DNA of 40,746 bases from positions 1 through 40,746 of the IMG/VR virus record IMGVR_UViG_3300027811_000012, one strand, 5' to 3'. The position numbers and the translations under genes were made by a program. Source of the stretch: a virus. Its lineage: Duplodnaviria; Caudoviricetes. Under the pieces are notes generated by a model. It ran no database searches. It was not told the DNA's origin and was given only the letters and a program-made list of their open reading frames with translations. This document shows, one piece after another, positions 3,424 through 40,746 of the stretch (position 1 is its first letter; the number at the start of each line of letters is the position of its first letter).

Positions 3424-5109
3424 ATGACAGATATAGAATTACAAAAATATAGGGAAGAATTGGATCAGTGGTCTGGTTTTACAGGCATTCTTCCTACTTC
3501 GACCTTTATAAAGTTAATCCATAGGCATGAGAAGCTAATAGCTTTGTTTACTGGGAACCAGTTTGGCAAGAACGTAACGATAATGAAGCATTACGTTGTT
3601 AGGTGGCTTGGAAAGCACTTTGTGGAGGCAAAGAATCTCCGTCCTGAGACTGTACACAGGACGTATCGGTTTTGCGCTGAGAAGAAGCCCAACGATACTG
3701 AGGGTGGTGATACAAACACGATTTACCCGGTATTGAAGAAGATGTGGCCCAAGAAGTTGATTCGGAAAGACATTACACAGCGAAACTCGGTAATGACGTT
3801 GATTGAGCCATATAGCGGATTGGACTTTTTTGTTGAGTTTATGGGGTATAGCCAGGAGATACAGGTTTCAGCAGGACAGCAGAGAGCGTCAGTTTATCTT
3901 GACGAGAACTGCAAAAGGGAGTTTTACAACGAACAGATACCAAGATTATTTACGTCCGATGGGGATATAATAATTGGCATGACTCCGGCCTTGGGTCAGG
4001 TGACATGGCAGTTTGAAGACATATACGAGAAGGCTCGTACTATTATCAGAACTCCCCTGGTAATAAGCAGGTTAAAAGAAAAGTTTGGTAAGGACTATAA
4101 AGAGGAAGAGGTAAGATGTAACGACAACGATATATGCGTCTTTATGGCGGCGTCCGATGACAACCCGGCTTACGACATTCTGGTAAAGAATAAAAATGAA
4201 AAAGAACTGGAATTAACTAAACAGGGAAAGCATCCGATTTTCAAGACTGTTGAAGAATTTAAGCCGATAACAAAAGCAGGATACATTAAGGGCAAGATAG
4301 ACGCTTACGATGAAGAAACTGAGGATATACGAAGGTATGGCATTTTTAGACAGGTTTCAGGCAGAGTATTCAAGGATTTCGATCAGGTACATGAAATTAA
4401 TGAAAGTAGGTACTTTCCTGATGGAATACCTCATCAGTGGTTATTTGGGAGGGCTACAGACTATCATCAGAGCACTCCATGGCATACGACTTTCATAGCA
4501 ATATCGCCTCAAGATGAAGCGTTCGTATGGCAAGAATCGGTAATGAGTCCTGATAAATTTGTGACTCTTCAAATGGCACGAGACATAGCAGGAAAGGGCA
4601 AAGATTATAAATTCACCTATAACAAAATCGATCCGTTGGCCGCAATGGTTCAAAGTAATACAGGAGTTTCAACCATAGACGATTTGAATAGGATTTTCAG
4701 TGAGCTAAAGAGAGACAATATTGGGACCGGAGGTTATTGGTCTTCGTGGGATTCAAAAAGTACCAGGGGAAGAGAAGAAGTTAAAAAAAGGCTTAAAAAC
4801 TCAAGGCTCTGCGGTACTCCTTTTAATAACAAGCAAATGGTTGATGGGCGTCTACAATGGCTTCCTACTATGTGGATTTTTTCTGATTGCAGGGTAACGA
4901 TAGATTCGTTGAAAAATTGGCGATATGATGAATGGGCTAATCGGTCTGCTTTAGAAACAAAAGACCCTAAAGAGACTCCAATGCAAAAGAATAGTCATAT
5001 CTGTACGGCGATTGAATGTTTATTCAAGGAACAGGGATTCAAAGGAAGACCGGAGATTCATAATATTCAGCCAATAAGAAAAACAGTAATGCAATATGGG
5101 AGAAGGTAA
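3424..5109 (+). CDS. terL: Terminase large subunit
   Basis: Walker A GNQFGKN, Walker B VYLDE, coupling motif GMTP, 'SGRVFKDF' linker, C-terminal RNase H-like nuclease (ATDYH). Confidence 0.9.
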   Translation: MTDIELQKYREELDQWSGFTGILPTSTFIKLIHRHEKLIALFTGNQFGKNVTIMKHYVVRWLGKHFVEAKNLRPETVHRTYRFCAEKKPNDTEGGDTNTIYPVLKKMWPKKLIRKDITQRNSVMTLIEPYSGLDFFVEFMGYSQEIQVSAGQQRASVYLDENCKREFYNEQIPRLFTSDGDIIIGMTPALGQVTWQFEDIYEKARTIIRTPLVISRLKEKFGKDYKEEEVRCNDNDICVFMAASDDNPAYDILVKNKNEKELELTKQGKHPIFKTVEEFKPITKAGYIKGKIDAYDEETEDIRRYGIFRQVSGRVFKDFDQVHEINESRYFPDGIPHQWLFGRATDYHQSTPWHTTFIAISPQDEAFVWQESVMSPDKFVTLQMARDIAGKGKDYKFTYNKIDPLAAMVQSNTGVSTIDDLNRIFSELKRDNIGTGGYWSSWDSKSTRGREEVKKRLKNSRLCGTPFNNKQMVDGRLQWLPTMWIFSDCRVTIDSLKNWRYDEWANRSALETKDPKETPMQKNSHICTAIECLFKEQGFKGRPEIHNIQPIRKTVMQYGRR

Positions 5110-5459
5110 TGGCTAATCAGAATAATATTCATGGGGGACTAAGACATGGGCCGTCCATAGCATATACACCAAAATTGAAAGATAATGCTATAAACTCGTC
5201 TGAACCATGGAATGCCAAGCAATCAGGAGCGTTATCTTCAACGGTAGTAGCAGAGACGGCTTACGGGCAGAGTTCAAATGCCGGTACAGCAGTAACAGTT
5301 TCTAAAGGAGACCATACGCATGGGACCCCTGCTACCCCAACGGCTTTACCAGGACTTCCCGTGTATGCCAATAATGCCGCTGCCGTAGCGGGAGGTTTAG
5401 CAGTTGGAGATATATATAGAACAGGTGGAAATCCTGATCCTGTTTGTGTGGTGCATTAA
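5109..5459 (+). CDS. Small fibre-like virion protein
   Basis: SKGDHTH knot-like motif and C-terminal 'VYANNAAAVAGGLAVGDIYRTG' typical of phage fibre tips. Confidence 0.55.
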   Translation: MANQNNIHGGLRHGPSIAYTPKLKDNAINSSEPWNAKQSGALSSTVVAETAYGQSSNAGTAVTVSKGDHTHGTPATPTALPGLPVYANNAAAVAGGLAVGDIYRTGGNPDPVCVVH

Positions 5460-5476
5460 ATATTAAAAGGAGAAAC

Positions 5477-5884
5477 ATGAAAAAGTTTTTATTGATAATT
5501 TTTGTGATGCTGATAGCCGGTTGTGGGAATCCGCTTTCGGTTACTCAAGATTCTCATGCTGACTGCACAAGCGGAACGTTGCTGATGACTGACTTGACTC
5601 CGACAAACATTTCTCTTATTTCAGGACAGATAAAAACTTTAGACGTATCCGCGAATGTTTACGGAACCCATTGTCTCCCTACAACTGCGGTTATAGGAAT
5701 TGGAAGTAATATTCTTATATCCAGCACTCATAGTTTTGCAAATAATATTATACCCTGGACAATTACAGGATTAACGATTGATCCGAGTATCTTTTCGAGT
5801 AATACCGGGACAATCACTATATACCTTACTACCACTGACAACAGAACGAGTCCGACATACTATATTCCGTGGACGAAAATTTAA
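5477..5884 (+). CDS. Lipoprotein
   Basis: AGGAG RBS; signal peptide MKKFLLIIFVMLIAG|C with lipobox. Confidence 0.75.
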   Translation: MKKFLLIIFVMLIAGCGNPLSVTQDSHADCTSGTLLMTDLTPTNISLISGQIKTLDVSANVYGTHCLPTTAVIGIGSNILISSTHSFANNIIPWTITGLTIDPSIFSSNTGTITIYLTTTDNRTSPTYYIPWTKI

Positions 5885-30340: not shown

Positions 30341-30398
30341 TTCCAACCAGACGGTCCAGCGGGACGCGAAAACCGCGCCCCTGACCTGGACGTTATGC
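30341..30398 (+). mobile_element. Solitary attC site (58 bp)
   Basis: TTCCAAC cagac ggt[c]cag[c]ggg[a]cgcg aaaac cgcg ccc ctg acc tggac GTTATGC: perfect stem with three extrahelical bases. Confidence 0.85.
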
Positions 30399-30560
30399 GC
30401 GACTCCACGGAACAAATTTTTCCCCAATAAAATTAGGATACCACAAATGCTTATTGCCACACTTGCATCGTGACTTTCTCACTCTGCGTCCGCAATTAAT
30501 ACAGAAGAGTACAGTTTTACGTCTCACAGGAGTATATTCATTTTGTCTTCGTAATCTCAT
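30393..30560 (-). CDS. Small Zn-finger protein (55 aa); stop codon lies in the attC R'
   Basis: Own translation MRLRRQNEY...FCINCGRRVRKSRCKCGNK... Confidence 0.55.
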   Translation of the reverse strand: MRLRRQNEYTPVRRKTVLFCINCGRRVRKSRCKCGNKHLWYPNFIGEKFVPWSRA

Positions 30561-32663: not shown

Positions 32664-32701
32664 GTTAAGACGCCATTATGGCGGTGTAATGAATGTTGTG
32701 A
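32664..32701 (+). other. attI-like site A
   Basis: gttaagacgccattatggcggtgtaatgaatG|TTGTGA; gapless 23/34 match to 37629-37662. Confidence 0.7.
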
Positions 32702-32929
32702 CTATATGCACTTCATCCCTAATTTCAACATTGCGATTTCTCGGTTTTTACGCTCCAAAATAAGGCGGACAAGTGATGCCGGGGGCGTGCCTAATGGCCC
32801 ATGTTCTTCAACCATGCCATCAGACAGATCAAGCTCATTCACTACATCTTCAAGCATGTTTTTATATAAGGCGCATTTATCCAAAAGTTTTGAAATTTCG
32901 ACATCTTTTGCGTCTGGGCTTCTGTTCAT
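32702..32929 (-). CDS. Cassette A1 gene, hypothetical (75 aa)
   Basis: AGGAAGG RBS before ATG 32929; bounded by G|TTGTGAC and GCCACAAC. Confidence 0.75.
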   Translation of the reverse strand: MNRSPDAKDVEISKLLDKCALYKNMLEDVVNELDLSDGMVEEHGPLGTPPASLVRLILERKNREIAMLKLGMKCI

Positions 32930-32952
32930 CGCATTCCTTCCTGACGCGATGG

Positions 32953-33009
32953 CCACAACCATTGCGTCCACTGCGACACGCCTTGCGGCGCGTGACCGCC
33001 GCGTTATTT
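32953..33009 (+). mobile_element. attC A1 (57 bp)
   Basis: CCACAAC cattg cgt[c]cac[t]gcg...cgcgtgacc gccgc GTTATTT. Confidence 0.85.
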
Positions 33010-33159
33010 TCTCTCAGCAAAAAATGCCACTATCGAAAGCACTGTGAATATTATCGCTCCAGAAAATCCGATGATTTTCTCCCAACGTTTTTTTGCAAAA
33101 CCTGCGGCCTGTGAAAATATCATTGACAGCATCATAAAAAGAAACAGTTTGTCGGCCAT
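33004..33159 (-). CDS. Cassette A2 gene, small 2-TM membrane protein (51 aa)
   Basis: GGAGG RBS; two hydrophobic stretches; stop in R'. Confidence 0.7.
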   Translation of the reverse strand: MADKLFLFMMLSMIFSQAAGFAKKRWEKIIGFSGAIIFTVLSIVAFFAERK

Positions 33160-33171
33160 TTCATCCTCCGA

Positions 33172-33228
33172 AAATAACCATAATTTCGACAACGACACGC
33201 TTCGCGGCGTGTCAGATTGTCGTTAGTT
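33172..33228 (+). mobile_element. attC A2 (57 bp)
   Basis: AAATAAC cataa ttt[c]gaca ... tgtcaga ttgtc GTTAGTT. Confidence 0.88.
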
Positions 33229-33456
33229 TTCTATCTTGCCCTCAACTTGTGGCACTGCATCACGGTGAAAAATATTATCTGGTACTTCAAATTCCACCGT
33301 CACCACAGCACGTTCTCGGTCCCGGCTCAAATACTCAGGACCGAAGTGTTCTCGGTTAAATACCTCGCAGTGCTCGTGCATTTCTCCAATCCACTGCGAA
33401 CAGACGATTGCGGAACCGTATCCTTTTGATACAACCAAATGCGCTTTAACTTTCAT
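33223..33456 (-). CDS. Cassette A3 gene, hypothetical (77 aa)
   Basis: GGAGG RBS; stop in R'. Confidence 0.75.
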   Translation of the reverse strand: MKVKAHLVVSKGYGSAIVCSQWIGEMHEHCEVFNREHFGPEYLSRDRERAVVTVEFEVPDNIFHRDAVPQVEGKIEN

Positions 33457-33469
33457 CCCGACCTCCGAA

Positions 33470-33558
33470 AACTAACCAGCGGTTCGTGTCCGACCGCGAC
33501 GGCGCTGGTCGCTTATGTTCGTTATTCTGTGGCGCGGCGGTACACCCGCACGTTATCA
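33470..33558 (+). mobile_element. attC A3 (89 bp)
   Basis: AACTAAC cagcg gtt[c]gtg[t]ccg[a]ccgc ... gcggcggtacacc cgcac GTTATCA. Confidence 0.82.
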
Positions 33559-33876
33559 TTTCAAACCACTCAATGTTTTCTCGTATCGCTCTGTGCATTT
33601 GCAAAATGCAGAATTGATTGCGTCCTTTTTCTCTTTGAAATAATATCTTCCCGGACTGCCAATGATCTCCGTGCCGTTTTGGAAGTGCATACCTGATCTC
33701 GGGATGGATAAAACATACCCACCGGCAGGCCACTCTGAAATTACATGAGATTGCAGGTGTGCTATGATTTCCAGTAGCCGGTTTATATCTCGCATCTTCA
33801 CGGCAGGCCATCCGTCGTGGAAATGGTCATTGTTTAACAATTCCATGCGATTTATAAAATCCTGTTCGCTCTCCAA
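33556..33876 (-). CDS. Hypothetical phage protein
   Basis: GGAGG RBS before TTG 33876. Confidence 0.65.
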   Translation of the reverse strand: MESEQDFINRMELLNNDHFHDGWPAVKMRDINRLLEIIAHLQSHVISEWPAGGYVLSIPRSGMHFQNGTEIIGSPGRYYFKEKKDAINSAFCKCTERYEKTLSGLK

Positions 33877-33895
33877 ATTGCCACCTCCAATAAAG

Positions 33896-34366
33896 TTATT
33901 TAATATACTCCAAAAATTGTTTAAACTTAGGGTATTCATTTTGCAACTTTTCATGTAACTCTTTTCTCGCTAACTGTTTATTAATAATACTATCATCGTT
34001 AAGGATTTGTGAAATGCCTCTAAAAAGTTTCCCTCCGCATTCCATCACTTCATTGCTTGGTTGAAATTTAGGCTTAACATAATGATCTTCTACTCTATTA
34101 ATCTTATCAAGGTAATCAAAGACTCCATTTAGTTTACCTGAATACTCACCTAATTTGTCAAGTTTCCACTTAGGGTATTTTGATAATCTCTGCACCCAAA
34201 GTTTGGTTTCGCTTTCCCCTAGCGTCTCCCTGGTGAATGTTTCCAGGTAAACTATTATTGAGGCCACATATTCCCGCAATTCTTGTTCTTCGTTCATCTT
34301 CACGCTCGGCAGCGAAGTTTCTTCCTCTTCCGGCTCTCCCGATGCTCTGCTCTTGTAATCCTTCAT
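33896..34366 (-). CDS. Hypothetical protein, possibly helicase-loader-like (replication module)
   Basis: GGAGG RBS; follows initiator-like domain. Confidence 0.6.
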   Translation of the reverse strand: MKDYKSRASGEPEEEETSLPSVKMNEEQELREYVASIIVYLETFTRETLGESETKLWVQRLSKYPKWKLDKLGEYSGKLNGVFDYLDKINRVEDHYVKPKFQPSNEVMECGGKLFRGISQILNDDSIINKQLARKELHEKLQNEYPKFKQFLEYIK

Positions 34367-34598
34367 TTATTACCTCCGGTTCTACCCATTCCTTCCACAA
34401 TCCATCAGGGTAGTCTTTAGATTTAAAAAACCTTATCGGGTCTACAGGCCATTCTTGTCTTTTTGCGTAATTCTCAGTAGCGGTAAGGCAAAGGTTTTGG
34501 TCGCTTTCACTCAACTTGTCGAATAGTTTCTTACATTGCCCCTTGCCTATTTTCTTACCATTACGGGCAGGGTATAGTTTCCAGAACTGAATAAACAT
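34170..34598 (-). CDS. Replication-initiator C-terminal-like domain protein
   Basis: 'FIQFWKLYP...GKKIGK....K.F.KL......C..A..NY.......DPIRFF' pattern; AAGGAG RBS. Confidence 0.65.
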   Translation of the reverse strand: MFIQFWKLYPARNGKKIGKGQCKKLFDKLSESDQNLCLTATENYAKRQEWPVDPIRFFKSKDYPDGLWKEWVEPEVINEGLQEQSIGRAGRGRNFAAEREDERRTRIAGICGLNNSLPGNIHQGDARGKRNQTLGAEIIKIP

Positions 34599-34647
34599 AT
34601 TAGCTCCTTATGTTTTCGATATAGTAAGTTACCCTCAGTATCTCCTT

Positions 34648-34863
34648 TCACGCGATTCGCCAACACCGCAAGCCTTTATCCGTATTGCGGACAGAAAATT
34701 TCATACTATTTCTTGTGCCAAAGTAACTTGCGGCGGAAGCAATTTTACGTTCATCTTGGACTTCAACAAGAAACGAATCGCCTATGTTCATTTTGTTAAA
34801 AGGGTATTTGCTAGTATATGCCTTCGATTCCACAAACGGGATATTTTTATCAATTTTTATCAT
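34648..34863 (-). CDS. Small phage DNA-binding-like protein
   Basis: 'KIDKNIP......KYPFNKMNIGDSF ... GLRCWRIA' family pattern. Confidence 0.7.
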   Translation of the reverse strand: MIKIDKNIPFVESKAYTSKYPFNKMNIGDSFLVEVQDERKIASAASYFGTRNSMKFSVRNTDKGLRCWRIA

Positions 34864-34876
34864 TTTGCATCCTCCT

Positions 34877-35065
34877 TTACGGTACTAAATCACACAATTC
34901 ATCACAATCAGTACAAATCATATCAGGGTAATGACACACCTCAAAACACTTATTTCTTTTATTCCACTCTACGGGTACTTCTTTTTCCGCTCCACAAGTA
35001 GGGCATTTGTAATTATAAAAGTCTCCCTCTTGGAGTCCTTCGTTTATGAAGTCTGATTTATCCAT
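34877..35065 (-). CDS. Zn-ribbon protein
   Basis: CPTC ... CTDC. Confidence 0.6.
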   Translation of the reverse strand: MDKSDFINEGLQEGDFYNYKCPTCGAEKEVPVEWNKRNKCFEVCHYPDMICTDCDELCDLVP

Positions 35066-35960
35066 TATATTCTCCTATTACTTCTACTTTTCTGCATCGA
35101 ACTTTTTCTATACTTTCATGGTATACGACAAAATCATCTTTATGCACTCGGCAAGTAAGAATTTTTCCTATGTTGAATTTTTGAGTCATAAACGGTAGTG
35201 GGCTAAGATGCAGGCCGCCTCCACATTTCCGATCTTCTGATGGGTCAAAATCAGGGCAAGTGACCATCCCTTCATATTTTATTTTACCTGTTTTGAAATC
35301 GCATCGGGTATTTGAATTTACTGATTTATATAGATATACAAACCCTTTATCATCAGGGATAAAAGTATTCAAAAATGATTCTTTCGTGTGTTTCTGCGCA
35401 ATAGTATTTACTAATGTTGCATGGCCAGAAATAATAATTTTAGGGCTACAATCTTGGAGGATAATTACTGCACGACCTGATGCGGCCCCTGTTACGCTGT
35501 CACTTAATATTTTCACCGTGGCATTGCCGGAGACATACTGCACCGTGGCATTGTCAAAGACAGACTGCACCGTGGCATTGTCGGAGACATACTTCACCGT
35601 GGCATTGCCGGAGACAGACTGCACCGTGGCATTGCCGGAGACATACTGCACCGTGGCATTGCCGGAGACAGACTGCACCGTGGCATTGCCGGAGACATAC
35701 TGCACCGTGGCATTGCCGGAGACAGACTGCACCGTGGCATTGCCGGAGACAGACTGCACCGTGGCATTGTCGGAGACATACTGCACCGTGGCATTGTCGG
35801 AGACATACTTCACCGTGGCATTGCCGGAGACAGAATATAAGCCATTTTTGACATTTCTACTTAACCTATAAATATTACCTTTAATGATGATAGCTATTTG
35901 TTCTTTAAAATCTGTTAATTTATCCAATTCTTCTTGGGTGGTAATAATTATTTCATTCAT
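35058..35960 (-). CDS. Nonapeptide-repeat (beta-solenoid) protein with C-terminal 'CGGGLH' domain
   Basis: VSGNATVQY/S repeats; 'YKSV', 'CGGGLHL', 'KVRCRKVEV' motifs. Confidence 0.8.
   Translation of the reverse strand: MNEIIITTQEELDKLTDFKEQIAIIIKGNIYRLSRNVKNGLYSVSGNATVKYVSDNATVQYVSDNATVQSVSGNATVQSVSGNATVQYVSGNATVQSVSGNATVQYVSGNATVQSVSGNATVKYVSDNATVQSVFDNATVQYVSGNATVKILSDSVTGAASGRAVIILQDCSPKIIISGHATLVNTIAQKHTKESFLNTFIPDDKGFVYLYKSVNSNTRCDFKTGKIKYEGMVTCPDFDPSEDRKCGGGLHLSPLPFMTQKFNIGKILTCRVHKDDFVVYHESIEKVRCRKVEVIGEYNG
35514..35832. repeat. 27-bp tandem repeat, ~12 copies
   Basis: caccgtggcattgYcggagacaKactK units. Confidence 0.95.
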
Positions 35961-36215
35961 TTTCAATACTCCCCCTTCCCATTATCTGCCTCCATGTTAT
36001 GATATTCTACGATATTGTTTCGCTGTTTTAATGCTCATTGGTTCCAACATTGAAGCAGGAATTTCGTTTATATTTGGCTTATTACATTCGTCGCAAAGAT
36101 ACCCTTGTATAGTAGTTCCTTTTTTTATCTCATTCCACTTCTGTATTGGTTTGTCCTTTAAGTGGACGCAAACTATTACCCATCCATCCATTTCAATACT
36201 CCCCCTTCCCATTAT
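35961..36215. repeat. 25-bp exact direct repeat (35961-35985, 36191-36215) flanking one gene
   Basis: tttcaatactcccccttcccattat seen twice. Confidence 0.9.
35997..36191 (-). CDS. Hypothetical protein (64 aa) between the direct repeats
   Basis: ATG 36191 with RBS in the repeat; CxH...CDEC. Confidence 0.6.
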   Translation of the reverse strand: MDGWVIVCVHLKDKPIQKWNEIKKGTTIQGYLCDECNKPNINEIPASMLEPMSIKTAKQYRRIS

Positions 36216-36390
36216 AATAATGTGCTATTAAAGCCAGTGTACTAAACTTAGGGTCTGAATCTCCATCATAAATTCGATACAAGGTAGCTCTATGTATCCC
36301 TGTAGCGTTTGAAATTTCCCTAAGTAAGCCTTTTTTAACGTCTCTTTTGAAAAGTTTCATTAAGTCTTTTTTGTAAAGTTCAAGATTCAT
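36193..36390 (-). CDS. XRE/Cro-family HTH regulator
   Basis: 'LREISNATGIHRATLYRIYDG.SDPKFSTLALIA'. Confidence 0.85.
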   Translation of the reverse strand: MNLELYKKDLMKLFKRDVKKGLLREISNATGIHRATLYRIYDGDSDPKFSTLALIAHYYNGKGEY

Positions 36391-36414
36391 TTTGCTCCTT
36401 CCGAGATGCACAGA

Positions 36415-36609
36415 TTATACCGTAATATCCTTGTGAATTATCATCTTATTCCCAGTAACTAAATCAGTTTCAATTGTTGGATTGCACCAACAGGCTGCGG
36501 AGTCAGTGTTGTGTTCAGGCATATAAGCTATAAATTGTCCGCAGTTCGGAGCGCATTCAACGTTCTTGTAATGTTTCGCGGGACATTTTTTATTTAAGCA
36601 TCTGCTCAT
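36415..36609 (-). CDS. Cys/His-rich hypothetical protein
   Basis: AAGGAG RBS; 'H....ACWCNP.......IIH'. Confidence 0.65.
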   Translation of the reverse strand: MSRCLNKKCPAKHYKNVECAPNCGQFIAYMPEHNTDSAACWCNPTIETDLVTGNKMIIHKDITV

Positions 36610-36629
36610 ATTATTTCTCCTTTCAGTCG

Positions 36630-36842
36630 CTACTTAACTGAACGTTGCATTTCTTCCCTTGCTTGCTTAATGTACTTGTCGCGCCATCCAATAGATGACA
36701 TGTACCCAGCCTGTGCAGTCTGGAATATTCGCATACACGCTAAATCAAGAGCATATGAATAGATTTCAATGGAACAATACGGGCACGGTTCTGTGCCCTC
36801 AATAGTATCGTAGTTGTGAGTTTTGCAAACAAAGTCCGGCAT
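36630..36842 (-). CDS. Hypothetical protein
   Basis: AAGGAGGAG RBS; CKTH...CPYC. Confidence 0.65.
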   Translation of the reverse strand: MPDFVCKTHNYDTIEGTEPCPYCSIEIYSYALDLACMRIFQTAQAGYMSSIGWRDKYIKQAREEMQRSVK

Positions 36843-36852
36843 GCTCTCCTCC

Positions 36853-37614
36853 TTAACTCACCTTCTTTTTTAGTTTCCAGTATTTCAATAAACATAAAAA
36901 CATTTCCCAAGCTCTCAAAAGCTCTTCTTCTGTGTATTCTTTTATGTAAACTTCTTTTGTTGTGGTTGAAATGTAGACGTTGTAACATTTTGCTTTTTCA
37001 TTACCAAACCCTACTCTATAAGCGGCCAATTGTACGCAGTTGTCATCGTGGTCACGCTTTTTCATCTCTTCTAATCCTTGCGCGGTGGTCTTTAGGTCAA
37101 TGATTATTCCTGGTACTTGTAAATCTATCTTTCCTCCAAAACCCAAAGGATGTGCGAAAGACTGCTCACAATTCCAACTTTGGGACCCGTACTTATCGTA
37201 AATCGCAGTACAAGCCGCCGTTACATATTCTTCATGCTCTGTAGGCTTTACGCCTTCGTAGGCTCCTTGAATAGCGGCATGTATTTCAGTACCTAACTCA
37301 GCCGCGTCCGCTCCTGCTTTTTTACTATCTAAAATTATCCTTGCAATGTATTCGTCTTCCGGTTCATTTATAGCCCTTGGTAAAGTAAGCGCGGCCAAAA
37401 GAACCTGCTTCATTTTATAAAAAGTAAGCCACTCTTTAGCGGCCATGTTTTTAATTGCGCTTACGCTTGGGACTAAATCAAGTTTTCTTGCGTCTGCAAG
37501 GGTAGTATCTCGTTCTTTCCCATTTTTACCTATTACGGTATAAACAGGACGGCCTTGACGGTCGTACCAATGAGTACTCTGACTTGGTCTTATTATGTTT
37601 ATTTTGTTATCCAT
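36853..37614 (-). CDS. PD-(D/E)XK exonuclease (phage, Cas4-like)
   Basis: 'HWYDRQG', 'PSVSAI', 'GTEIH', 'GGKIDL....IIDLKT', 'QLAAY'. Confidence 0.88.
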   Translation of the reverse strand: MDNKINIIRPSQSTHWYDRQGRPVYTVIGKNGKERDTTLADARKLDLVPSVSAIKNMAAKEWLTFYKMKQVLLAALTLPRAINEPEDEYIARIILDSKKAGADAAELGTEIHAAIQGAYEGVKPTEHEEYVTAACTAIYDKYGSQSWNCEQSFAHPLGFGGKIDLQVPGIIIDLKTTAQGLEEMKKRDHDDNCVQLAAYRVGFGNEKAKCYNVYISTTTKEVYIKEYTEEELLRAWEMFLCLLKYWKLKKKVS

Positions 37615-37628
37615 GTCAACCTTTCGGA

Positions 37629-37666
37629 GTTATACAGCCATCTTGGCGTTCTAATAGTTGTTGGGG
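37629..37666 (+). other. attI-like site B
   Basis: gttatacagccatcttggcgttctaatagttG|TTGGGG; matches site A. Confidence 0.7.
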
Positions 37667-37670
37667 CGTA

Positions 37671-37985
37671 TCACTTCGCCGTCAGAAATTGCGCTGCTAT
37701 CGGAAGAGCTTCGACGCTCGGATCAGTGTCCTCTTTCGGAGTCCACGGCCCGCCTTGTGGCCCGTTTGCTACCTCTGAAAAATTCAGCCTTCTCGGTTTT
37801 CCGGGGTCCGGTCCGAGAACGGGAATCCAATTTGCCCGAATGCTTTCCGCTATCGCCGGGTTTTGTGCCTCAACGAATCTCGCCATATACTCTCGGCAGG
37901 CCAGCAATCCCGCCCGAAAATATACGCGGTGAACGTCATTTTGTAACGAGGATTGCGCTTCCTCTACTGCTGTTCGATTGTTCAT
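37671..37985 (-). CDS. Cassette B1 gene, hypothetical (104 aa)
   Basis: GGAGG RBS before ATG 37985; visibly more GC-rich than flanking phage genes. Confidence 0.75.
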   Translation of the reverse strand: MNNRTAVEEAQSSLQNDVHRVYFRAGLLACREYMARFVEAQNPAIAESIRANWIPVLGPDPGKPRRLNFSEVANGPQGGPWTPKEDTDPSVEALPIAAQFLTAK

Positions 37986-38017
37986 ATCGCCTCCAATGAA
38001 GAAAAAAATTAGAACCC

Positions 38018-38074
38018 GCCCAACCAACGTATCGACGGGCCGCAAGACCCGCGCCCGTCATCCGGGCGTTAGTC
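38018..38074 (+). mobile_element. attC B1 (57 bp)
   Basis: GCCCAAC caacg tat[c]gacg ggc[c]gc ... gcgcc cgtcatc cgggc GTTAGTC. Confidence 0.88.
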
Positions 38075-38281
38075 CGTCAAAATCGTAATTGCCGGTGCTG
38101 CTTCTCTTATTTCGATGATGGTTTCCTGCCCCGCTTCACGAACAAGATCAAGAGCGGTCCATACCCGTTCGATTGTCTCTGCCGCAAAATAGCGCGTTGT
38201 CCGGCGTATTTCGGTAGTGGTTGTCCCAGGTTCTTTTTTCGTTTCTCCGTCATGCTCTGATACGACTATAAATATTTTCAC
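38069..38281 (-). CDS. Cassette B2 gene, hypothetical (70 aa)
   Basis: AAGGA RBS, GTG start; stop in R'. Confidence 0.72.
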   Translation of the reverse strand: MKIFIVVSEHDGETKKEPGTTTTEIRRTTRYFAAETIERVWTALDLVREAGQETIIEIREAAPAITILTD

Positions 38282-38302
38282 TGTTTTCCTTTCGACCCGA
38301 CG

Positions 38303-38358
38303 GACTAACCATCGCGGCGTGTCCGACCGCTACGCGGCGGTACACGCGGGCGTTAAAA
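38303..38358 (+). mobile_element. attC B2 (56 bp)
   Basis: GACTAAC catcg cgg[c]gtg[t]ccg[a]ccgc tac gcggcggtacacg cgggc GTTAAAA. Confidence 0.85.
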
Positions 38359-38370
38359 TCACTCTATACC

Positions 38371-38553
38371 CTACTCTTGCGCTACCGTGATCGTGAGTCG
38401 CTTTTTCAAACCATATTCTGGCGGTCTATCCGCTCTTGCCCATGCTACAATTTCTCCGACAGGCGTACTCTCGCTGAATATTTTGGTTTCCTGCCATGCT
38501 TCGCCAACAGTTTCATTTCCGGTGCTCATGTCTTTAATGGCTACGATTTGCAT
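38371..38553 (-). CDS. Cassette B3 gene, hypothetical (60 aa)
   Basis: AAGGGA RBS before ATG 38553. Confidence 0.7.
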   Translation of the reverse strand: MQIVAIKDMSTGNETVGEAWQETKIFSESTPVGEIVAWARADRPPEYGLKKRLTITVAQE

Positions 38554-38576
38554 GTATCCCTTTCCGAACGACTGGA

Positions 38577-38624
38577 TTTCAACCAATCGTTCGACCCGTT
38601 GAACGGGTCAACTCAGCGTTATAA
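38577..38624 (+). mobile_element. attC B3 (48 bp, very short)
   Basis: TTTCAAC caatc gtt[c]gacc cgttgaacg ggtcaac tcagc GTTATAA: perfect L''/L' pairing. Confidence 0.88.
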
Positions 38625-38942
38625 TTTTTCTAATGCAATACGTGCCGTGTCTTGCGCCTTACCTGAACCGTATTCGTAAATTTCGGAAAGTGCTTCCCTC
38701 ATCATTTTTGATTTCTGAAAGTTGCACTTTATCCGATCAACACATTGTGCCCCATCTGCACCGACAAGATTGTAAATTTCCACGAGCCGATCAAGCCGTG
38801 AAAAAATCCAGGCGTGTTCAGCCTCGTGAAACTTCATTTCAGCAATAACAGTATCAAGTGTTTCAAGCTTACCTGTGGTCGCAGCGCAAACGTGCTGCAA
38901 TCGTTCGGCTATGTCTATTGCGCGTTTTAGGTTCGTTTCCAT
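38619..38942 (-). CDS. Cassette B4 gene, hypothetical helical protein (107 aa)
   Basis: GAGGTG RBS; stop in R'; C-terminal 'MREALSEI......ARIAL' typical of small phage proteins. Confidence 0.75.
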   Translation of the reverse strand: METNLKRAIDIAERLQHVCAATTGKLETLDTVIAEMKFHEAEHAWIFSRLDRLVEIYNLVGADGAQCVDRIKCNFQKSKMMREALSEIYEYGSGKAQDTARIALEKL

Positions 38943-38958
38943 TCTTCACCTCAAAAAA

Positions 38959-39006
38959 TTATAACCAGCCGTCCGAGCGGTCAAGCCGCTCAACTAAGTG
39001 TTACGC
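38959..39006 (+). mobile_element. attC B4 (48 bp, very short)
   Basis: TTATAAC cagcc gtc[c]gagc ggtcaagcc gctcaac taagt GTTACGC. Confidence 0.85.
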
Positions 39007-39663
39007 CCTATCTAACTCATTTATCAACATATTAGCATCATTTTCGCTTAACTTATTGATAAACACATCCCCACTATTATGGTCATTTGGTATCACTATA
39101 CCAAAATTACCACAGTATTCGATAATATCCCTGTTGGTAAACTTTTTAGCTGAAAACTTACCTTTTAGGATAGTTTCGAGTACGGGTCTTAGGTGGTATT
39201 CTGCGGGGGGATTTGGGGCCTGTATAGGCTCTGCGGGTATTTTATCCAATTCCAGGATAGGGAGAAGCCGCTTATAGGCCACCTCTACTAGGTCCAGTAC
39301 GGCCTCAAATGACCCAGGAACCTGAACCGTGACGTAGGTATTAGCCAAACGTTCCGCATAGCTTAAAATGTAGCTCTTCTGCGATAAGACGAACCCTTCC
39401 TTGGTATCCGCAAACTTGGCCACAAATGGCTTTTTGCCGCCTCCTGAGTACCCACCTGCCGCCTCCGAAAGCTTCATCCTGGGGGGATATTTGGGGTCTT
39501 TTGACGGCGTCACCTCAAACTGCACCTTTTGTCCTATTTTGCTTAATATAGAAGGGGCAAAACACTGGTATTGCACCCCATCAGCCACTACATTATGTAC
39601 TGATACTTCTGGGTTATTACCAAACTTATGTGAAAATACAGCACTATTTATCGTCGCTTCCAT
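39001..39663 (-). CDS. Putative ssDNA-binding/recombination protein
   Basis: OB-like N-terminus, G-rich linker; would be adjacent to the exonuclease if array B were removed. Confidence 0.5.
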   Translation of the reverse strand: MEATINSAVFSHKFGNNPEVSVHNVVADGVQYQCFAPSILSKIGQKVQFEVTPSKDPKYPPRMKLSEAAGGYSGGGKKPFVAKFADTKEGFVLSQKSYILSYAERLANTYVTVQVPGSFEAVLDLVEVAYKRLLPILELDKIPAEPIQAPNPPAEYHLRPVLETILKGKFSAKKFTNRDIIEYCGNFGIVIPNDHNSGDVFINKLSENDANMLINELDRA

Positions 39664-39754: not shown

Positions 39755-40746
39755 CTAGCTAGTCCATTCTGGTAGTTGTGACAATATTTCCAATTCCTGC
39801 TTGGCAGATATATCAGCAAGTGCGTCGCGCTCGATAATGCCAACTATCCATGCCCTAGCATGTAATGCTTTTTTTGCTTCTGGTGGAACAGCTTTAGCGT
39901 AAAAAACTCCGGGTATAGACGCATGTTCAAACCATAAATATTGTCTGTTAATATTATTTCCTATGGTCATTTTTTTTAATGAATAAACCAGCCCGGTTTT
40001 GGGGTCGCTGCCGTTGTCTATTGTTTCGGCATTAGTGGCTTTTAATAATCGTTCAGCACCGATTTTTCTTATTATTTCTCTTTGCACATCTGCGTTTTTC
40101 TCGTCTAATGCCAACTGAGGGTTTATTTTTTCTGATGGTGTCATTACAAGCCATTCGGGAACCCGTATTCCGTTCAGGTGGTAAATTTTGAAACCATCCC
40201 TCCATAAATGAGACGGGCCTGTATTGCAATGGGGTCGATTATGCGAATCTACCCGTATTTCCAATGGGAAATCAGATACTATGCAGAATTTTTCGTGCAT
40301 TACCCTGAACCCGCCCTCTTGTGCGCATGATTCCCACGCACTATATTTATCCCAACAATCCAAACCAGTGAGCTTAAGCACATCTCTCATACACTCGTAA
40401 TATGAGCATATAGACGGCCACATGTTGCCTCCATGATATACATGGTTCCATCTACGGCAACAGTCTGTTAATAACCTAGACATGTTCGGAGCAAAATGTT
40501 TTGCTAAATTGCATAGCCAGTCTGTTGCCGCGTCTGTTGCCGAGATTATTGCCGCGTATGTTGCCGCGCGTGTTGCATCGTCTGTTGCCGCGCGTGTTGC
40601 CGCGTCTGTTGCCGCGTCTGTTGCCGAGATTGTTGCATCGTATGTTGCCGCGTCTGTTGCCGCGTATGTTGCCGCGTCTGTTGCCTCGTCTGTTGCCGCG
40701 TCTGTTGCCTCGTCTGTTGCCGCGTCTGTTGCCGAGATTGTTGCCG
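39755..40746 (-). CDS. Partial ORF (start outside window): ATDA-repeat protein with DUF6745-like C-terminal domain
   Basis: Frame stays open upstream of ATG 40483 to the window end (…ATDAATDWLCNLAKHFAPNM…); 'HCNTGP...WRDG.KIYHLNGIRVP' and 'EKNADVQREIIRKIGAER' motifs. Confidence 0.75.
   Translation of the reverse strand, partial: ATISATDAATDEATDAATDEATDAATYAATDAATYDATISATDAATDAATRAATDDATRAATYAAIISATDAATDWLCNLAKHFAPNMSRLLTDCCRRWNHVYHGGNMWPSICSYYECMRDVLKLTGLDCWDKYSAWESCAQEGGFRVMHEKFCIVSDFPLEIRVDSHNRPHCNTGPSHLWRDGFKIYHLNGIRVPEWLVMTPSEKINPQLALDEKNADVQREIIRKIGAERLLKATNAETIDNGSDPKTGLVYSLKKMTIGNNINRQYLWFEHASIPGVFYAKAVPPEAKKALHARAWIVGIIERDALADISAKQELEILSQLPEWTS
40520..40746. repeat. 12-bp degenerate coding tandem repeat (gtctgttgccgc; encodes AATD/ATYA/ATIS variants)
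   Basis: Directly visible; window ends inside it. Confidence 0.92.

Follow-up and report, generated by a model that had tools for sequence, protein, structure and literature searches.

Two integron arrays in a soil phage record carry seven cassettes with genes antisense to attC behind predicted attI sites

The linear soil phage record IMGVR_UViG_3300027811_000012, whose 40,746 bases form the window analysed here, contains two arrays of integron cassettes within the span 32695-39006: one at 32695-33558 with three cassettes and one at 37660-39006 with four, with about 4 kb of ordinary phage genes between them. The pairing between the two ends of each cassette marks a variant integron system with two attI heads and cargo genes antisense to attC. 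Judged from the sequence, these are most probably integron arrays of the phage into which circles were inserted one by one at G|TT, by an integron integrase (IntI) that likely came from outside the arrays. Their components are as follows.

32664..32697, plus strand: attI-1, predicted docking site at the head of array 1; crossover G32695/T32696, profile score 36.6.
32696..33003, plus strand: cassette 1, 308 bp; attC1 at 32953-33009, open reading frame (ORF) at 32702-32971 on the minus strand.
33004..33222, plus strand: cassette 2, 219 bp; attC2 at 33172-33228, ORF up to 33004-33198 on the minus strand, its stop formed by G|TTA.
33223..33552, plus strand: cassette 3, 330 bp; attC3 at 33470-33558 (89 nt).
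33223-33456, minus strand: ORF of cassette 3; GGAGG just inside R'', stop in G|TTA.
37629..37662, plus strand: attI-2, predicted docking site at the head of array 2; crossover G37660/T37661, profile score 37.2.
37661..38068, plus strand: cassette 4, 408 bp; attC4 at 38018-38074, ORF at 37671-37985 on the minus strand, from a widespread phage gene family.
38069..38352, plus strand: cassette 5, 284 bp; attC5 at 38303-38358, ORF at 38069-38281 on the minus strand, stop in G|TTA.
38353..38618, plus strand: cassette 6, 266 bp; attC6 at 38577-38624, ORF up to 38371-38586 on the minus strand.
38619..39000, plus strand: cassette 7, 382 bp; attC7 at 38959-39006, ORF at 38619-38942 on the minus strand, stop in G|TTA.

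The original prediction held that the R'' of each unit is complementary to the left end of that same unit. All seven left-end motifs that it named (at 33003, 33222, 38068, 38618, 38352, 32695 and 37660) were found where it had placed them, and all the R'' partners lie at the right end of their own unit (32952, 33170, 33467, 38018, 38299, 38575 and 38954). The perfect matches at 33003 (9/9), 33222 (10/10), 38068 (11/11) and 38618 (12/12) were reproduced, as were the near matches at 38352 (8/9), 32695 (7/8) and 37660 (6/7). When all 5040 assignments of the seven left ends to the seven R'' ends were compared, the true assignment was the single best, bearing out the predicted preference of R'' for its own left end over the adjacent R'. 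Over the four bases after GTT, own ends matched at 25/28 positions, a value reached by 1/5040 assignments, against 11/28 for the adjacent R' and a permutation mean of 10.7; over six bases the counts were 37/42 versus 17, and over nine bases 46/63 versus 21. The pairing also runs past the 7-bp R box, as had been claimed, with matches at 21/35 of bases 5-9 after GTT (reached by 2/5040). Position by position after GTT, 6, 7, 7, 5, 6, 6, 4, 3, 2 and 1 of the seven units matched, indicating strong pairing over some 9 bp that has faded out by about 12.

Each cassette was then circularised in silico and its bottom strand folded, and the circle form was more stable than the array form at 7/7 sites. 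The AAC/GTT core was fully paired in 5/7 circles and 2/3 paired in the other two; in the array form it was wholly unpaired in 5/7 sites. The proposal that each unit was once a circle opened between G and TT is supported, and it fits both the definition of an integron cassette and the attC geometry at all seven sites. According to passages of PMC2674596, such a circle is what defines an integron cassette, and the attC belonging to a cassette is that of its circular form; the pairing is therefore expected of any cassette. That own ends pair, also past 7 bp, is textbook knowledge for integron cassettes and ordinary in itself, and two class 1 cassettes used as a control paired at 10/10 with the same script. 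We relied on end complementarity for detection because a free-fold scan for attC was unspecific and a strict attC detector missed attC2 and many related sites.

Terminators and repetitive extragenic palindromic (REP) elements, which the original prediction had dismissed as a cause, can be ruled out. Some of the attC hairpins are terminator-like on the plus strand and 4/7 stops overlap GTTA, so that terminators or REP-like hairpins might be imagined whose end matches arose by chance or from stop codons and ribosome-binding sites. There is virtually no chance of this: a single permutation in 5040 reaches the observed pairing, the terminator-like matches at the hairpins fall on the non-coding strand, the bulge geometry is conserved, and near-identical hairpins stand between different genes in other phages. 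The attI profile scores and the counts of own-end partners and reversed ORFs in related loci, given below, refute it as well.

The same geometry fixes the polarity of the sites. On the plus strand, 7/7 sites carry an extra C nine bases after AAC, after which come three L-box bases complementary to a trio located eight bases ahead of GTT (3/3 in five sites, 2/3 in two), whereas only 0-1 of 3 pair in the mirror frame; the plus strand is therefore the top strand of attC. In this frame an L''/L' stem with an extrahelical G on the bottom strand is found at standard spacing in all seven sites, and class 1 sites show the same geometry. All seven cassette ORFs lie on the minus strand, antisense to attC and co-directed with the neighbouring phage genes; several cassettes have a GGAGG-type site just inside R'', and G|TTA serves as the stop codon in four of the seven. 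In the classical layout the ORF lies on the top strand of attC and is readable from the cassette promoter Pc behind attI, whereas 7/7 ORFs here face the opposite way. We rejected inverted insertion through top-strand recombination, a route treated in passages of PMC5027507, as it would flip gene and attC together.

Both array heads consist of a 34-bp site matching the attI that accompanies a group of integron integrases from phages and prophages. The head pattern had only these two matches in the window (chance 0.02). A profile was trained on 26 unique sites adjoining integrases with an identity of 48% or more, with the window sites left out and one seed that was a wrong pick; it scored the two heads at 37.2 and 36.6, the next site, which is no attI, at 7.5, and 30 shuffled windows at no more than 14.4. 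By this profile, each array has a predicted docking site at its head. Neither the two attI sites nor the reversed genes figured in the original prediction. Against viral contigs the first head pattern gave three matches. One, in the locus L001, precedes a divergent integron integrase by about 25 nt, and this integrase reaches 300 bits with TIGR02249, for which the cut-off is 265. The other two, L002 and L003, lie inside ORFs and were rejected as chance matches. A scan with a second pattern gave 16 matches: eight beside IntI, three orphan attI sites with a reversed cassette, and five without a cassette.

An alignment of 72 L001-type integrases led to 192 loci (80 viral, 33 genome and 79 metagenome), of which 90 were kept after removal of duplicates, partial matches, distant loci and those with little upstream DNA. 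An attI was picked by eye in 60 of these, and 53 were distinct with enough DNA. A perfect 6-base own-end partner of the first cassette was found downstream in 38/53 (mean 1.3, maximum 6 with shuffled left ends), and a 5-of-6 partner in 50/53 (shuffled mean 7.6, maximum 15). In those 50 first cassettes the ORF was called reversed in 47, forward in one and unclear in two, and 28 ORFs stop in G|TTA; the forward call, L092, proved on inspection to have a reversed ORF with a ribosome-binding site. The attC polarity agreed with the attI frame in 21 of the 50, was mirrored in three and tied in one, and was too weak to call in 25. The same longest-ORF rule returned forward ORFs for control cassettes of class 1 (2/2) and of a Shewanella prophage integron (3/3 distinct cassettes). 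In the published TJE1 array all three annotated genes lie on the attC top strand, with a clear call by the rule for only one; Vibrio repeats were poorly detected and the rule was uninformative on them.

The neighbouring genes were scanned in 14 of these loci. In eight of them the flank that was retrieved holds genes for terminase, portal, head or neck proteins, in the remainder mostly phage-type primase, recombination, partition or methylase genes; seven of the 14 were in Geobacteraceae, Desulfuromonadaceae or other deltaproteobacterial bins. A quick tree contained one core group of 32 rows (SH-like approximate likelihood ratio test, SH-aLRT, 100), and reversed loci occurred on other branches too; a single reversed-cargo clade is thus unsupported, and one origin is not established, because these loci are spread over several branches. 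LexA boxes of deltaproteobacteria differ from the gamma-type box. For this reason the counts of the latter (absent in 44/44 reversed loci, present in 7/24 others) were not used as evidence.

Several observations on these loci stand apart. The first cassettes of L011 and L092, and those of L071 and L109, share about 12 identical bases at both ends and differ in length and gene, as if gene bodies had been exchanged inside fixed ends. L027 and L038 have the same first-cassette left end behind attI, although their integrases belong to separate branches of the tree. In the arrays of L056, L058 and L068, beside one integrase branch, some ORFs were called forward and others reversed. A second attI-like site lies about 5-6 kb from intI in L048 (at 10014), L141 (at 233, in front of a shorter recombinase-like gene) and L144 (at 10796); the attI sites of L096 and of the record G003 also score on the opposite strand. 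L203 (Virus Rctr41k) carries at 4680-5678 an IntI-like gene within a phage operon, overlapping the upstream gene, with neither attI nor attC detected.

The cargo itself bears on the origin of the cassettes. No family in PHROGs, NCBIfam or Pfam scored above cut-off for any of the seven cassette proteins, and the cassette 7 protein had no homologue except itself. The cassette 4 protein had 248 homologues. We fetched 22 viral loci of this family and examined 21, leaving out one cut at a contig end. In two of the 21 (L231, with six attC, and L232, with three) the homologue is a reversed cassette, all attC being antisense to the genes; two others showed weak end matches without attC, two checked in full had none, and the rest lacked cassette ends. 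In most cases, then, the cassette 4 family appears as an ordinary phage gene, and in some as a reversed cassette, which suggests, for this one family, that cassettes may be made from phage genes.

Signs of cassette movement were also found. The attC2 site is 94.5% identical over 55 nt to an attC of the integrase-bearing locus L143, attC4 is 98% identical over 49 nt to one of the integrase-bearing L023, and attC6 has an 86% identical copy among the integrase-bearing loci L143/L023; the flanks differ in each case. L011 and L013 have different first cassettes and share the gene that comes next, which begins at G|TT, and L064 has one extra cassette at attI, before a cassette identical to the first of L062; 3/9 shared stretches in such comparisons began at GTT in both loci. 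The window was present in only two runs, representing one soil sample that is its possible source. In contigs from this sample, a piece of 265 bases identical to cassette 6 has branches on either side: at the left G|TT a contig of depth 3.5 brings another hairpin, and at the right G|TTA contigs of depth 3.9 and 7.2 continue differently. Variation of units exactly at G|TT boundaries is thus seen both in a second context for cassette 6 (one sample, low depth) and in the swaps among relatives.

Sites like attC5 (window 38306-38355) and attC7 (38961-38995) were also found in other contexts in the source sample, on two short contigs that run on into apparent forward ORF starts, and host-type cassettes may share attC sequences with reversed ones. 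These contigs, together with the insertion of cassettes by integrases at GWT sites reported in the part of Loot et al. (10.1101/2022.09.11.507474) available to us, would suit a scenario in which a host integrase inserted host cassettes at chance GTT (attG) sites and selection kept those facing the transcript. The cassettes of such attG insertions and of single attC sites lacking integron integrases (SALINs) in that source likewise lie far from an integrase gene, but they sit at short GWT sites, whereas the window cassettes stand behind full attI sites. A 34-bp attI at both heads is not predicted by this scenario, which the attI match largely refutes; moreover, insertion at attG would turn the gene and its attC round as one unit, but in the window attC keeps its direction and the gene alone is reversed, and the single cargo family that was tested belongs to phages. 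We therefore consider it very unlikely.

Where the integrase of the arrays comes from has to be weighed separately. The whole record gave no match to the tyrosine recombinase family PF00589 or to the integron integrase profile. The arrays lack the intI beside attI of a complete integron, other genes lying behind both attI sites; with two or more attC within 4 kb and no integrase nearby, they are attC clusters that have no integron integrase (CALINs) as defined in the part of PMC4889954 consulted. Three further records with orphan attI sites, G003, L209 and L217, likewise had no IntI match, the latter two being partial. G003 (74.9 kb) has direct terminal repeats and two attI sites, each followed by cassettes with mostly reversed ORFs; it shares the plan of the window and fits an integrase acting in trans, a mode of supply that we somewhat favour for the window too.

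The following course of events would account for the arrays. As described in parts of PMC5027507, PMC4889954 and PMC8946536, the substrates of IntI are the bottom strand of a circle, in folded form, and a double-stranded attI, which it joins at G|TT. From this biochemistry the newest cassette would adjoin attI, each incoming gene landing beside attI and facing it. Because the genes face attI, a leftward phage transcript would read them from oldest to newest, the newest last, and Pc would not be needed; the transcript would run on into the gene behind attI, which is intI in the relatives and here, for array 2, the exonuclease gene and, for array 1, a gene of unknown function. A co-infecting phage or resident prophage of the same integrase group would provide the integrase, or an unsequenced part of the genome would encode it.

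A number of points weigh against this account of insertion by an outside integrase. The choice of the 60 attI sites was made by eye among 90 of the 192 loci, all of which trace back to a single seed integrase; for half of the related attC the signal was too weak to give an orientation, and three scored as mirror; and the longest-ORF rule is crude, being uninformative on Vibrio repeats, one TJE1 cassette and some G003 cassettes. The branching contigs are short, at depth 3-7 and from one sample, and leave unproven that both new flanks of cassette 6 lie on one molecule. No joint skipping a cassette appeared in the source-sample contigs, which drop rare forms, and no recombination, circle junction or transcript was observed. 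CheckV rates G003 only 77% complete despite its terminal repeats. It rates the record at 79%, and the cassette 7 protein is also encoded on a 47,112-bp contig, from which the window lacks at least 6 kb; an intI may therefore be hidden in the missing 6 kb or more.

These last figures, the linear form of the record, the fact that both window ends break inside minus-strand genes, and the second attI-like sites 5-6 kb from an intI in L048, L141 and L144 would all suit an ordinary complete phage integron, in which an intI in the unsequenced part serves both attI sites in cis. G003, with terminal repeats, two attI and no IntI match, argues against this, as do L209 and L217, partial records in which attI and a reversed cassette occur but IntI does not. 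An integrase in cis is a possibility of some substance that we nevertheless find doubtful; it would leave the cassette nature and the reversed genes unchanged, and only supply in trans would fall.

Another possibility is that the arrays arrived as blocks by homologous or illegitimate recombination, or lost their integrase, and are now immobile. The record without integrase, the contigs without a skipping joint and a decayed eighth site (below) would agree with this, but both attI score like integrase-adjacent sites, four units keep perfect ends of 9-12 bp, cassette 6 has other neighbours in the same sample, and the right edge of each array coincides with the stop codon of a phage gene, a different one in each case. 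Such a frozen state appears unlikely to us. Of the independent insertions in the original prediction, the part that stands is that each cassette had its own former circle, as its end pairing indicates; the separate entry of each into the phage does not follow, as a block may have been transferred.

The features around the arrays are as follows.

33556..33954, minus strand: phage gene that terminates right at array 1's last GTTA, from the sequence.
36853-37614: exonuclease gene whose start is 15 nt from attI-2; relatives have intI at that place.
39001..39663, minus strand: phage gene with the last G|TTA of array 2 as its stop codon, from the sequence; no family.
30341..30398, plus polarity: eighth attC-like site, outside the two arrays, no attI.

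The last GTTA of array 1 is likely the right half of an empty attI-1, and the last G|TTA of array 2 likely that of an empty attI-2. No close relative of the phage was found, so that neither empty site has been seen; upstream of four relatives of the exonuclease gene (53-54% identical) there was neither attI nor cassette, and their distance is too great for them to reveal an empty site, and the gene at 39001-39663 had no viral relative. The eighth site is followed by a probable degenerate cassette to about 30716, with an ORF at 30393-30560 that stops in G|TTA and an end match of 6/8; it has neither attI nor own-end partner upstream and is possibly an older third array.

Elsewhere the window encodes homologues of portal, capsid, endolysin, holin, NinG, RNA ligase and exonuclease, and from about 29.5 kb to its end the genes lie on the minus strand. 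A search of Rfam gave no match, and a promoter scan stayed at chance level (25 versus 19.0 +/- 4.4). Tandem repeats occur inside ORFs at 35510-35835 (30-bp units, in 35058-35966), and Ala-rich tandem units at 40500-40746 and 1-100, the record ends where the assembly breaks. The last 35 residues of the gene at 36415-36609, which is not a cassette here, are 86% identical to the ORF upstream of intI in L025.

Compared with classical integrons (class 1 and sedentary chromosomal), the arrays share the G|TT crossover, the R''/L''/L'/R' hairpin, the position of the extrahelical base, own-end complementarity, one short ORF per cassette and an attI head, and a related integrase passes TIGR02249. They differ in that the ORFs are antisense to attC and point to attI, no intI lies beside either attI, one genome has two attI, and expression would start beyond the array's far end and not at Pc. 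Qi et al. 2023 (PMC9892861), in the portions available, report 17 phage CALINs and the recombination of five phage attC sites with IntI1. Their phage genomes likewise contain attC clusters without integrase, but the annotated genes of their TJE1 array are co-oriented with attC, unlike the reversed genes of the window. The passages of their text and supplement at hand describe neither reversed ORFs nor a family of orphan attI, whereas figures and annotation could show reversed cases. Inverted-integrase integrons, as presented in part of PMC13323075, resemble the related phage loci in having intI on the same strand as the cassette genes. There, however, intI is flipped relative to attC, whereas the phage loci keep intI and attC in the regular divergent layout (21/25 scorable related loci) and the cassette ORF is flipped instead. 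The open-access literature, to which our search extended and which leaves subscription journals uncovered, yielded no publication that describes phages with reversed cargo or with orphan attI. Phage attC clusters are thus already known, as far as the consulted part of PMC9892861 goes; the reversed cargo and the orphan attI heads appear to be new.

In integron theory as set out in passages of PMC5027507, strand selection keeps genes facing away from attI and readable from Pc. The sites of the window are of the same type and carry genes facing the opposite way, which fits a phage operon, and the reversed genes would overturn the rule that the newest cassette is the best expressed. Orphan attI sites are missed by the usual tools, whose knowledge of attI is that of classes 1-3 according to the part of PMC4889954 consulted; the present profile detects them. 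That same source describes how cassettes are created as an open question, and the cassette 4 family, present as plain gene and as reversed cassette, offers material on it. With slightly less than even confidence, we suggest a network of phage integrons of reversed polarity, with some phages encoding the integrase in an early operon and others having just several attI docking sites and borrowing the enzyme in trans, in which ordinary phage genes become backward cassettes that move among unrelated phages. If this were true, phage genes would be a direct source of new cassettes, and paired free-gene and cassette forms of one family would be at hand for the question of cassette origin.

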